Assembly (NCBI GenBank): GCA_030600505.1
Contig: JAUVLY010000001.1
Coordinates: forward strand, 1-35,687
Source of the DNA: Candidatus Falkowbacteria bacterium
Lineage (GTDB): Bacteria; Patescibacteriota; Patescibacteriia; Patescibacteriales; UBA12075
DNA: 35,687 nt
Reading direction: 5' to 3'
Below the pieces are notes generated by a model. It made no database searches. It was given only the letters and a program-made list of their open reading frames with translations, and was not told the DNA's origin. Every line of letters begins with the position of its first letter. The first letter of the stretch is position 1. Of the stretch, positions 22,437 to 35,250 are shown piece after piece. The position numbers and the translations under genes are program-made.

Positions 22437-22543
22437 GAAAAATAAGATAAATAATAAAAAATAAGATAAATAAGAAAAATAAGATATAATTTTGCTTATA
22501 AATCATATTTTTCTTTTTATACTTATTTATCTTTTTATAAATT
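22437..22543. repeat. AT-rich imperfect hairpin element, family copy 1
   Basis: Fills the gap between the stop at 22436 and the ATG at 22544 exactly. Shares the 19-nt word AATAAGATAAATAATAAAA (22441-22459) and the 17-nt word TCATATTTTTCTTTTTA (22503-22519) with 33700-33796. Confidence 0.7.
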
Positions 22544-23319: not shown

Positions 23320-24984
23320 ATGGTTAATCCAATTCTTACAAAAAAAGAAGACAATCCGGTTTCTACACCCAGCAAAAACGCCAAGCGGCTTTTTCAGGCG
23401 GTTTATTACGCGCAAAATCCACCGGCTAAAGAGCAAAAAGATATTCCGCGGCTTTCGGTTTCCTCCGTGGTTTCAAAAATGGCGTTTTATTACGAGAAGA
23501 TCCGTAATACGGTTGAGTATAAAGAAGAGCATTTACTTAGAAAAAACGCGATTGAACGCATTTTGAAAAGGCAAATTGTAATTGAAGGCGCCATTAGCCC
23601 GGGGGCAAAGGGCGCGGAAATTGCCGAGCATTTACTGACCGAGCTGATTCGGGCGGGGTATTTACCGAATAATACTATTCCGGAAACAAAGATCAGTGAA
23701 TTCGGCCAGGTGATTGATAAGTATATATCGCTCAGGCGCTACGCGGTCGAAGACTATAAGTCATTGCAAATTAAAGAGCGTAACGCGCTAACCAATTGGA
23801 TCATGGCTTTGGCGGCCAGCGATATGGAGGAGCGCTTGGGGCGCAGCCAGGTTGATTTAGTAGTTATTGACTATATGTACCAGACCCTGCTTGACGATAT
23901 CAGCCTGGAGGATGCCCTTGAGTACGAGATTGACCGGGAGATTCAGATATTTGTCGCCATTCATCGCTCATACCTTAAATTTGACAGGGAGATGCTAAGT
24001 TTTATTTTGTTAAAATATTTTCATCCCAATTGGCTTAAAGCCAATGAAGAAGAAATCGCTGATGTCGGGAAAAACATTCTGGCTATTAAAAAATCAATTG
24101 AAGGTCAAATTGACCACCCTTTGACGCCTCAGCTTAATCGGATTGTCAGCCGCTATACCGTATTTTTTCAAATTTTAAATGACGTAATCGCGAATAATCC
24201 GGTTAAGGTTTATGAAGGTTTTTTTAAAGATCCGGTGGCCTTCTCTCGCATGATCAAGCAGGCGGCCGGTAAAAAGTACCACGATGCCAAGTCCAAGCTG
24301 TGGCGGGCGGCTGTCAGAAGTATCCTTTATATTTTTATTACTAAATCATTTTTTGCTTTTATTTTGGAGATTCCGGCTACCCGTTGGTTTGGTGAAGAGA
24401 TCAATCCAATATCTTTGTTTATTAATGTAACCTTTCCGGCGGTTTTACTTTTCTTAATTGTATTATTCTCCCGTATGCCGAGTGAAGATAATTCACTAAA
24501 GATCATTGAAGGGATTAAGGAAATAGTGTTTGAAGAAAACCAAAGAAAAGAGCCCCACCGCTTGCGCCAGCCGGCTAAGCGCAGTGCGTTTTCCAATTCA
24601 ATGTTTGGGATAATTTACGCGATTACTTTTTTCCTGTCTTTTGGCGCGGTTGTCTGGGTCTTAAACGCGATTCATTTTAGCGTTGTTTCAATAATAATTT
24701 TCCTTTTCTTCCTGGCCTTGGTCAGTTTCTTTTCCATCCGTATCCACAAGAACGCCAAAGAGCTCTTAATATTACCACCCAAGGAAAATGTATTTAGTTT
24801 TATCGCGGATTTTTTCTACGTCCCGATTGTTAGCGCCGGTAAATGGTTAAGCGAGAATTTCTCTAAGGTTAATGTCTTTGTTTTTGTCCTTGATTTTATT
24901 ATTGAAGCGCCATTCAAGGTGTTTGTTGCCATTACCGAAGAATGGACCAGGTATGTTAAGGAAAGGAAAGATGAGATAGTTTAA
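23320..24984 (+). CDS. large membrane protein, unknown function
   Basis: 554 aa. Soluble helical N-terminal roughly 330 aa followed by about 5 TM helices. The start is 1 nt after the preceding stop. Confidence 0.6.
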   Translation: MVNPILTKKEDNPVSTPSKNAKRLFQAVYYAQNPPAKEQKDIPRLSVSSVVSKMAFYYEKIRNTVEYKEEHLLRKNAIERILKRQIVIEGAISPGAKGAEIAEHLLTELIRAGYLPNNTIPETKISEFGQVIDKYISLRRYAVEDYKSLQIKERNALTNWIMALAASDMEERLGRSQVDLVVIDYMYQTLLDDISLEDALEYEIDREIQIFVAIHRSYLKFDREMLSFILLKYFHPNWLKANEEEIADVGKNILAIKKSIEGQIDHPLTPQLNRIVSRYTVFFQILNDVIANNPVKVYEGFFKDPVAFSRMIKQAAGKKYHDAKSKLWRAAVRSILYIFITKSFFAFILEIPATRWFGEEINPISLFINVTFPAVLLFLIVLFSRMPSEDNSLKIIEGIKEIVFEENQRKEPHRLRQPAKRSAFSNSMFGIIYAITFFLSFGAVVWVLNAIHFSVVSIIIFLFFLALVSFFSIRIHKNAKELLILPPKENVFSFIADFFYVPIVSAGKWLSENFSKVNVFVFVLDFIIEAPFKVFVAITEEWTRYVKERKDEIV

Positions 24985-25213
24985 TTAGGTTTTAGCTTTT
25001 AGGTTTTAGCTTTTAGGTTTTAGCTTTTAGGTTTTAGCTTTTAGCTTTTAGGTTTTAGGTTTTAGCTTTTAGGTTTTAGCTTTTAGGTTTTAGCTTTTAG
25101 GTTTTAGCTTTTAGGTTTTAGGTTTTAGAGTTGACCTATAACCTACAACCTATAACCTATAACCTACAACCTATAACCTACAACCTATAACCTAAAACCT
25201 AACACCTAACAGT
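24985..25213. repeat. roughly 230-bp palindrome built from tandem 14-16-nt units
   Basis: The left arm is about 9 units of TTAGGTTTTAGCTTT (24985 to about 25130). The centre is AGAGTTGACC. The right arm is units of CTATAACCTACAAC (25137-25213). Arms are about 80% complementary by eye (13 of 16 in the aligned unit). Confidence 0.8.
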
Positions 25214-25219
25214 TTAAGG

Positions 25220-25996
25220 ATGCCCACACTTTACATTGTTGCCACGCCAATTGGTAACTTAGAAGATATTAGTATGAGAGCGCTTCGCATTTTGGGCGAA
25301 GTTGATTTTATATTATGCGAAGATACGCGGGTGACCGCTAAGCTGCTTTCGCATTACAGTGTTAAAACCCCGACCATTTCTTATCACCAGCATTCCAGTG
25401 AAAAAAAACAAGCGCGTATTTTAAATTTACTTAAAGACGGCAATAGCTTGGCTCTGGTAAGTGACGCCGGTACACCCGGGATATCCGACCCGGGCGGCAA
25501 GCTGGTGCAAGCGGTGATTGAAAAATTTAATGCGTCTGTACGGGTTGAATCAGTGCCTGGGCCATCTGCCGTAACCGCCGCTTTGTCCATTTCCGGTATC
25601 CCGACCGACAAATATGTGTTTATGGGTTTTCCGCCCCACAAAAAGGGCCGCCAAACTTTTATTGAACGGATTACTGATTCAATTTACCCGGTAGTGGTCT
25701 ATGAATCCAAACACCGGATTATTAAATTTTTAGAAGAATTAAAAGATTTAAATAAAAAAATCATTAAAAAAAATCAGGCAATCGACGATTCTGTAGAGGT
25801 GCGCCATGGCGCGTCTAAAAAGAAAAAAGAATTAAAATTGCAAAAGCGCACTCCGGTTACATCAGTCGTGGTTTGCCGCGAGCTTAGTAAAATGCACGAA
25901 ACCGTTTATCGCGGCGGCCTGGATCATATTACCGAGCAGATAAAAAATAATCAAGACGACCAAAAAGGGGAGTTTGTCGTGATAGTTGGGAAATAA
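25220..25996 (+). CDS. rsmI: 16S rRNA (cytidine1402-2'-O)-methyltransferase RsmI
   Basis: LYIVATPIGNLEDISMRALRILGEVDFILCEDTRVTAKLL, SDAGTPGISDPG and VPGPSAVTAAL. 258 aa with a Lys-rich insertion near residues 185-215. Confidence 0.9.
   Translation: MPTLYIVATPIGNLEDISMRALRILGEVDFILCEDTRVTAKLLSHYSVKTPTISYHQHSSEKKQARILNLLKDGNSLALVSDAGTPGISDPGGKLVQAVIEKFNASVRVESVPGPSAVTAALSISGIPTDKYVFMGFPPHKKGRQTFIERITDSIYPVVVYESKHRIIKFLEELKDLNKKIIKKNQAIDDSVEVRHGASKKKKELKLQKRTPVTSVVVCRELSKMHETVYRGGLDHITEQIKNNQDDQKGEFVVIVGK
25793..25819 (+). repeat. GTAGAG-headed palindromic (REP-like) element, in frame within rsmI
   Basis: GTAGAGGT-GCGCCATGGCGC-GTCTAAA encodes VEVRHGASK. It has the same GTAGAG...GTCTA frame as 34006-34032 and 34806-34833. 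Confidence 0.6.
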
Positions 25997-26041
25997 TTTC
26001 TCGTAACGTGGAACTCATAACTCATAACTCAAATAGATTAA

Positions 26042-33699: not shown

Positions 33700-34032
<333 letters not shown>

Positions 34033-34101
34033 GTGATTATTTAGTATTTTTACGGATGGGAGGTGAATTTCGCCTCTCAGTGTTAGAATATTAATAACCC
34101 C

Positions 34102-34195
34102 GTCATTCTGAACCCACGAAGTGGGTGAAGAATCCCGTCGAAAACATATTAACGTTATCATCGAGATCCTTCGTCGCTTTGCTCCTCAGGATGAC
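34102..34195. repeat. inverted pair of GTCATYCTGA...GAAGRATC elements between atpE and atpF
   Basis: 34102-34134 reads GTCATTCTGAACCCACGAAGTGGGTGAAGAATC and is itself a hairpin. The reverse complement of 34165-34195 reads GTCATCCTGAGGAGCAAAGCGACGAAGGATC. Confidence 0.6.
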
Positions 34196-34206
34196 ATTAC
34201 AAATAC

Positions 34207-35161: not shown

Positions 35162-35250
35162 ATTTATAAGTTGTAATTTGCAAACAATTTTGTTTATACC
35201 CGCAGGGTACTTTGTAAATTATAAATTATAAATTATAAATTTAAACACAT
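35162..35250. repeat. intercistronic imperfect hairpin (atpH-atpA)
   Basis: AATTTATAAGTTGTAATTTGCAAAC is approximately complementary to TACTTTGTAAATTATAAATTATAAATTATAAATT, with a GC-containing apex CCCGCAGGG. Confidence 0.5.

Follow-up and report, generated by a model that had tools for sequence, protein, structure and literature searches.

The repeat element between the gene for a 554-aa protein and rsmI (24985–25210, + strand) appears to be a gene-less, hyper-expanded copy of a hairpin built from a dispersed seven-nucleotide word with the core TAGS (S being G or C). It would represent the non-coding form of a cassette in which two inverted arrays of one 7-nt word are placed around a PF05635 (S23p) gene. 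We give this reading a probability of about 0.6. The window analysed is a stretch of 35,687 nt, which is one entire contig of an incomplete short-read metagenome bin of 0.89 Mb (153 contigs, 40% GC). Genes were called with our own longest-ORF heuristic, and the copy numbers of the arrays are as assembled from this short-read bin.

Architecture of the repeat array

The element fills the spacer between two genes on the + strand. The upstream gene (23320–24984, an ORF) codes for a conserved protein of 554 aa, and its TAA stop (24982–24984) touches the array. A Pfam search of this protein, which the initial annotation had called a membrane protein, gave no domain. The downstream gene (25220–25996) is an rsmI-type methyltransferase gene (PF00590, E = 2.8e-30). 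As had been noted earlier, a tandem array follows straight after the stop at 24984, the array found by TRF starting at 24985. The left arm consists of block A (24985–25054, + strand; TRF and block comparison), ten heptads in which TTAGGTT and TTAGCTT units alternate almost perfectly, and block B (25055–25124, +), ten further heptads identical to block A at 69 of 70 positions (99% by block comparison). Block B is the part of the left arm which pairs best with the right arm. The centre and loop (25125–25133, +) are made up of a degenerate 21st unit followed by TG; the short centre described earlier is present at 25129–25133, and neither an ORF nor an ORF remnant was found in this segment. The right arm (25134–25210, +; TRF and sequence) holds 11 heptads with an ACCTA core, the complement of TAGGT. 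It begins with an eight-unit block of ACCTATA and ACCTACA, followed by ACCTAAA, ACCTAAC and ACCTAAC, which are of the family-consensus type. The mirror array of the initial annotation is thus real as a complementary array, but it spans 25134–25210 and ends 9 nt before the rsmI ATG.

This 9-nt linker (25211–25219, +) completes the spacer, the sequence 3' of the right arm being AGTTTAAGG and then ATG. The A+C-rich right arm reaches almost to the rsmI ATG. Since the AAGG of the linker immediately abuts the ATG, a working Shine-Dalgarno is doubtful. It was observed that a correctly spaced Shine-Dalgarno is absent 5' of rsmI (at 25215–25219 of the window) and of many other genes downstream of hairpins, including those at relatives' spacers.

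The unit is 7 nt long with a 14-nt super-period, and not 14–16 nt as first read. TRF describes the left array (24985–25128) as period 7 with 20.6 copies or period 14 with 10.3 copies (96% matches), and the right array as period 7 with 9.7 copies. Nor does the description of a 230-bp palindrome hold, because the arms are unequal, with 144 nt (20.6 heptads) on the left and about 78 nt (11 heptads) on the right, and because pairing in any single register is limited to about 84 nt of each arm. The arms are 79–81% complementary, that is 11 of 14 positions and not 13 of 16. The mismatches are fixed at three per 14 nt (U.U, U.C and C.C), and their periodic nature was confirmed. The left arm had been described as G+T only apart from one C per unit; its composition is 57% T, 22% G, 15% A and 6% C.

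Folding of the RNA gave -82.4 kcal/mol for the + strand (z = -5.6) and -76.5 kcal/mol for the - strand (z = -5.8), and none of 200 shuffles equalled the fold energy. On the basis of this predicted fold, a long structured RNA hairpin, as proposed in the initial annotation, is possible. A search of Rfam for a known structured RNA returned only sub-threshold matches to eukaryotic microRNA precursors, which are generic hairpins (best 44.6 bits against a gathering threshold of 119). No terminator-like site was found within 24985–25219. A promoter in the centre was also considered and rejected: TTGACC is present, but there is no -10 box at 16–18 nt from it and the promoter scan was empty.

The two arms carry a record of their growth. 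The identity of blocks A and B at 69 of 70 positions points to one recent 70-bp tandem duplication, or to an assembly effect, on a once-symmetric hairpin, which judging from the present units would have had 10–11 heptads on the left and 11 on the right. As each arm has its own 14-nt unit and the mismatches have been copied along with it, the arms must have grown separately by slippage and are not copies of one another. Each arm has expanded by its own 14-nt unit, and the left arm was later doubled via the 70-nt block. For a correlation of arm lengths, five strictly periodic array pairs qualified.

The TAGS word family in the genome

The TAGS word family is dispersed over about 15 loci of the genome. 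At least three phased TAG[G/C]T cores (or their complement) were found in 23 arrays, while ten Markov-2 shuffles gave none. Seven of these loci are full hairpins in stop-to-start spacers; the remaining ones are single arms, usually the A+C-rich arm just 5' of a start codon. The arms typically have 3–6 heptads, and the copy at 24985–25210 is the largest by far. At one further place, C72:5647–5665 of the genome under study (G000), three TAGS-complement heptads (21 nt) lie within an apparently open coding region; here the repeat may have entered a gene in frame.

Heptamer hairpins as a genome-wide class

Heptamer periodicity is not restricted to the TAGS word. Periods of 7, 14 and 21 account for 150, 100 and 25 of the 745 arrays reported by TRF, far exceeding the adjacent periods. 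Hairpins with at least 20 paired positions were found in 164 of the 575 spacers of at least 25 nt, as defined by our own ORF-based gene calls, compared to 24 in dinucleotide shuffles. They occupy 31% of co-directional, 23% of divergent and 17% of convergent spacers, and 7 is the best-fitting lag for 72 of the 164. The suggestion made earlier that the element is an expanded version of hairpin cassettes was therefore borne out, as it is a member of both this genome-wide class and the TAGS word family.

Several repeat words are present within the 35,687-nt window alone. A stop-to-start hairpin of the same class with a distinct 9-nt word (AAATAAGA type) lies at 22437–22543 (+), and a second copy of this type at 33700–33796 (+). 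The spacer at 35162–35250 (+) holds a heptamer array (TAAATTA, 4.6 copies) together with its inverted partner, and a single-arm array (AACTCAT, 2.9 copies; 26012–26031, +) is found in the spacer of 45 nt that follows rsmI. At 34090–34200 of the window there is also a GC-rich palindromic element whose ends are GTCATYCTGA and TCAGRATGAC. Elsewhere in G000, composite palindromic elements of about 160–180 nt occur on contigs C152 (three copies), C48, C46, C61, C79, C62, C50 and C55. They amount to at least 10 copies, fill co-directional spacers and have heptamer-like outer arms (ATTACGA/ATTTACGA type) with two conserved GC-rich inner modules. They may well form a mobile family of their own, built on heptamer arms.

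The same gene junctions in related genomes

The gene of the 554-aa protein is present in 39 of 41 relatives, and rsmI lies downstream of it at 18 of the 19 relatives' loci examined. It was found that a heptamer-type hairpin fills the orthologous spacer in about 13 of these 19, and that the words differ. Even within the genus, where the flanking DNA is 87–89% (G002) and 74–82% (G001) identical, each genome has its own word. A genome of the same family without an S23p match (G006) also has a heptamer hairpin at this spacer, which speaks against the cassette reading. The exceptions are one relative with a 12-nt spacer, one with a single arm and two with a two-gene insert. In the latter (G024 and G023; loci L007 and L008), about 650 nt with two ORFs, the first one short and the second of about 110 aa, stand in place of the hairpin; the insert looks like a toxin-antitoxin pair.

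The hairpins of G000 and G002 at the rsmI spacer have centres which are alike by eye, and both words retain TAG. The CACRTAR word of G002 is itself a dispersed family with 37 matches, so the likeness fits replacement as well as descent in place. In G021 (L017) the only CACRTAR double heptad found sits at the rsmI spacer, and G002 and G003 (L002 and L004) share the word there. This is a hint that a word may persist for long at one site in several genera, the G000 word being different. At L004 (G003:C1, about 383,300–384,300), 3' of the orthologue of the membrane-protein gene, there are about four tandem copies of the 5' end of rsmI, with units of about 115 nt, and the same GC-rich palindromic module (CTTCGCCCCGTCATCCGACAGGGCTTCG-like) comes after each copy. 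The arrangement suggests that an element mediated the duplication of a gene start.

Among the 41 relatives, the TAGST word has a patchy occurrence and was found in 15. Four other TAGS loci were compared with the same-genus genomes, which have other words, an unrelated GC-rich palindrome, three right-type heptads or an empty 11-nt spacer at these positions. The C72 locus forms a graded series in the genus, from an empty spacer of 11 nt through three right-type heptads to a full hairpin, and this series fits growth in place as well as insertion. The GTCATYCTGA/TCAGRATGAC element fills those G002 spacers whose G000 orthologues (C94 and C126) have TAGS hairpins, which indicates that repeat classes swap at the same gene junctions.

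An S23p cassette with TAGS arms

A profile search of the genome with PF05635 gave a single match, at C101:1279–1647 (E = 1.7e-36). This S23p gene has a TAGS-type array upstream and a complementary array of five to six heptads downstream, and the cassette sits between protein genes. At the same junction in G002 the flanking housekeeping genes are 4 nt apart, and in G001 a different gene is found there. The insert in G000 is about 475 nt long and consists of the left arm, the S23p gene and the right arm. The C101 cassette is thus present or absent as a unit, being absent from both same-genus genomes searched. Its left arm (C101:1207–1228, L021) provides the upstream gene with its six final codons and its stop; the C-terminal codons of this gene are identical between G002 and G001, unlike those of G000. 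As the left arm supplies the gene end in G000 and this end differs in the other two genomes, the insertion has rewritten the C-terminus of a housekeeping protein. The empty site of G002 already contains one ACCTAAA unit, and no target-site duplication was seen at the C101 insertion.

S23p is multi-copy in the relatives, where a genome of about 1 Mb can have as many as 15 of these genes. A set of 86 intact ORFs from 30 genomes, which is a part of each relative's S23p complement, was used to compare the genes with their flanks. Complementary flanks beyond those of shuffles were found at 70 of the 86 ORFs, nearly all of them made of 7-nt words. The maximum-likelihood tree has well-supported clades, each with its own word. 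One of these (support 100/99) unites the G000 protein with proteins from six other genomes belonging to three taxonomic families, and the arms of its genes have TAGG or TAGC cores. Phased TAGS cores were found in 6 of the 8 members of this clade and in none of the 78 others. In 30 of 59 cases a phased 5-mer is common to an S23p gene's flanks and those of its nearest counterpart in another genome (mean 4.5 and maximum 13 in 2000 permutations); with the counterpart taken from another taxonomic family, the figure is 24 of 59. At the level of genomes, TAGS-clade S23p (at least 50% identity) and TAGST arrays (at least seven triple cores) co-occur with counts of 6/3/2/30 and p = 4.5e-4, although association p-values of this kind overstate the case since the relatives are non-independent and the clade was recognised post hoc from the tree.

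Two other measures gave less contrast. The rank correlation between S23p identity and shared flank 6-mers had a rho of about 0; this global measure is uninformative because unrelated pairs share AT-rich words, and the nearest-neighbour phased 5-mer test was used instead. Labelling by the top phased 4-mer left 54 of 86 elements unlabelled and required 21 changes on the tree against 24–27 in ten shuffles, a weak contrast. Taken together, S23p clade and arm word co-vary across genomes, and the direction of the effect is clear. The C101 protein is basic (pI 9.2), and its closest solved structures are 2GSC (XCC0516 of Xanthomonas campestris) and 2RLD, with five chains deposited for each. No link between PF05635 and heptamer repeats was found in the publications retrieved.

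Origin of the element

We propose that the S23p cassettes and their gene-less copies are selfish or near-neutral insertions in stop-to-start spacers, which may be the only permissive sites in so compact a genome. Once in place, the arrays would expand and contract via replication slippage. The element is probably co-transcribed with its neighbours and could fold into a long imperfect RNA hairpin, and by analogy with the intervening sequences of rRNA this predicted hairpin would be a plausible substrate of RNase III. The copy at 24985–25210 is probably a non-autonomous or relic form of the cassette, located where insertions are tolerated, and its effects on the mRNA would be incidental at most. 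No trace of S23p was found in its loop. The loops of the gene-less family members have no common sequence, which argues that they are not simple deletion derivatives, and a model of this kind was rejected also because these loops bear no resemblance to either end of the S23p gene.

S23p may recognise the word of its own arms. It is tentatively proposed that S23p proteins are clade-specific readers of a core of 4–5 nt in every 7 nt, and that they could be promoting the spread or upkeep of cognate hairpins in the manner of RAYTs for REPINs; we regard this as a possibility with the odds somewhat against it. Perhaps one heptad would be contacted by each subunit of an S23p ring. PF05635 is not known to have a transposase-like activity.

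Alternative explanations

The most serious alternative, although an unlikely one, is that the host selects for an intercistronic RNA hairpin, which would serve in RNase III cutting, in protection of the upstream message or in bringing stop and start close enough for coupled translation. The repeat make-up would then be merely the route by which hairpins arise. The hairpin indeed fills the gap from stop to start exactly and folds strongly, the genome has an RNase III gene, the presence of which would make cleavage of the stem possible, and many of the downstream starts are without a Shine-Dalgarno. The recurrence of a hairpin at this spacer in about 13 of 19 relatives, with words changed and pairing kept, and the somewhat higher share of long hairpins in co-directional spacers could be read in the same way. 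However, divergent spacers also contain hairpins, a terminator-like tail is absent, and the relatives with a 12-nt spacer, a single arm or a two-gene insert have no such hairpin at the junction. The three uncompensated mismatches per 14 nt have been amplified and not repaired. On the sense strand of co-directional spacers, genome-wide, G.U and A.C mismatches numbered 219 and 225 (hairpins, 47 and 49), and this equality gives no sign of selection keeping the pairing of a sense-strand RNA.

A mutational by-product appears less probable again. In this case a heptanucleotide microsatellite would have arisen in place, grown by slippage and been mirrored by template switching, with no mobility and no role of S23p. 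Tandem duplications of 14 and 70 nt, the gradation seen at the C72 locus and the existence of single-arm arrays would all fit such a process, and an excess of heptameric repeats in bacteria together with the idea of polymerase slippage has been published (cited in PMC4692102). On the other hand, it does not account for the same degenerate word at about 15 unlinked loci and its patchy occurrence in 15 of 41 relatives, for the presence or absence of a whole cassette at one junction, or for the tracking of the word by S23p clade. Moreover, template switching predicts perfect complements, whereas periodic mismatches are seen.

It is very improbable that the array, or its length and the 70-nt duplication, was made by short-read assembly. 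The genome is a bin of 153 contigs, the 70-nt blocks are identical at 69 of 70 positions and the 144-nt array is close to the length of a short read, but conserved genes flank the array, which is internal to the longest contig, irregularities within the arrays anchor them, and this family and architecture are seen again at many other loci and in numerous independent assemblies. Finally, a replication origin or terminus, a segregation site or an iteron array acting as a DNA cruciform, which the initial annotation had listed among the possibilities, can practically be dismissed: long inverted repeats with phased short words are typical of origins and iteron sites, but cumulative GC skew climbs steadily through 25 kb with no switch, all neighbouring genes are on one strand with no replication or partition genes nearby, about 164 such hairpins occur in 0.89 Mb, and the orthologous spacer is unconserved, with unrelated words or nothing in the relatives.

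Significance

Heptanucleotide repeats are over-represented in bacteria, and their origin and function are not established (PMC4692102, PMC4679880). PF05635 is likewise widespread and functionally uncharacterised (PMC11270868, PMC4990558), with at least two solved structures (2GSC and 2RLD). The match of the TAGS word ties this unexplained class of repeats to the uncharacterised protein family. In one small genome and its relatives, these two orphans go hand in hand, and the clade of S23p predicts the repeat word. Whole cassettes inserted at gene junctions can even rewrite the C-terminus of a housekeeping protein. Thus, an old descriptive puzzle about repeats becomes a direct question of binding and mobility. 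If S23p proteins do read their words, a single undescribed class of mobile elements would have left most of the heptamer repeats that bacteria have in excess, and the 230-bp element would be a run-away non-autonomous copy. Heptamer hairpins make up a sizeable part of what little non-coding DNA ultra-small CPR genomes have, and they will confuse assembly, the calling of gene ends and the prediction of terminators and small RNAs.

Comparison with known systems

The intervening sequence (IVS) of the Coxiella burnetii 23S rRNA has an inverted-repeat stem with S23p in the loop, and RNase III cleaves it in vitro (Warrier et al. 2016, PMC4990558), and rRNA insertions of CPR bacteria contain S23p ORFs (Tsurumaki et al. 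2024, PMC11270868). The C101 copy resembles an IVS in its terminal inverted repeats, long stem and PF05635 gene in the loop, and the element at 24985–25210 has the stable stem (84-nt arms, 81%, -82.4 kcal/mol). IVSs are regarded as selfish elements, as is proposed here for the heptamer cassettes. In contrast to an IVS, both the element and the C101 copy lie between protein-coding genes and not in an rRNA helix, and the arms here are tandem heptamer arrays instead of a unique 28-bp stem. The present copy also differs in having no ORF and a loop of about 9 nt.

Like the heptanucleotide repeats described so far (STRR, GGGAATC and TAACTGA), the element consists of 7-nt units arranged head to tail in an intergenic region. 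The described words are GGGAATC, GGGGA(C/T)T and TAACTGA, and the word here, TTAGGTT/TTAGCTT, matches none of them. The GGGAATC repeats of Xanthomonas occur as 70–75 convergent (inverted) pairs per genome (Rehm et al. 2015, PMC4692102). They too are intergenic tandem heptamers, mostly between genes of the same direction and near the upstream ORF, often in inverted pairs, and their length and sequence vary among close relatives. However, they are G-rich and quadruplex-forming, whereas the TAGS word is without G-runs, and PMC4692102 connects them with no protein. The TAACTGA direct repeats of Beggiatoaceae, Cyanobacteria and Bacteroidetes lie a few nucleotides upstream of start codons (MacGregor 2015, PMC4679880). 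Cyanobacterial STRR and TAACTGA repeats share with our element the intergenic tandem 7-nt units and a patchy distribution over lineages, and the TAACTGA arrays also a location near the start like that of the right arms here. They differ in being mostly direct arrays without a mirror arm, in their words and lineages, and in having no associated gene reported.

A direct link to RAYTs was considered and rejected, as the sole match to Y1_Tnp in the genome is weak (C110:411–596, 29 bits) and no TAGST array was found on C110. Compared to the REP/REPIN-RAYT system, the gene here codes for a four-helix-bundle protein of about 120 aa and not for a Y1 transposase, and the arms are tandem arrays of variable number instead of a fixed palindrome of 20–40 nt. 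There are also parallels. In both systems palindromes are dispersed over intergenic regions, a single-copy gene is flanked by its own repeat in inverted orientation, and the clade of the gene matches the type of repeat, S23p taking here, by analogy, the place of RAYT.
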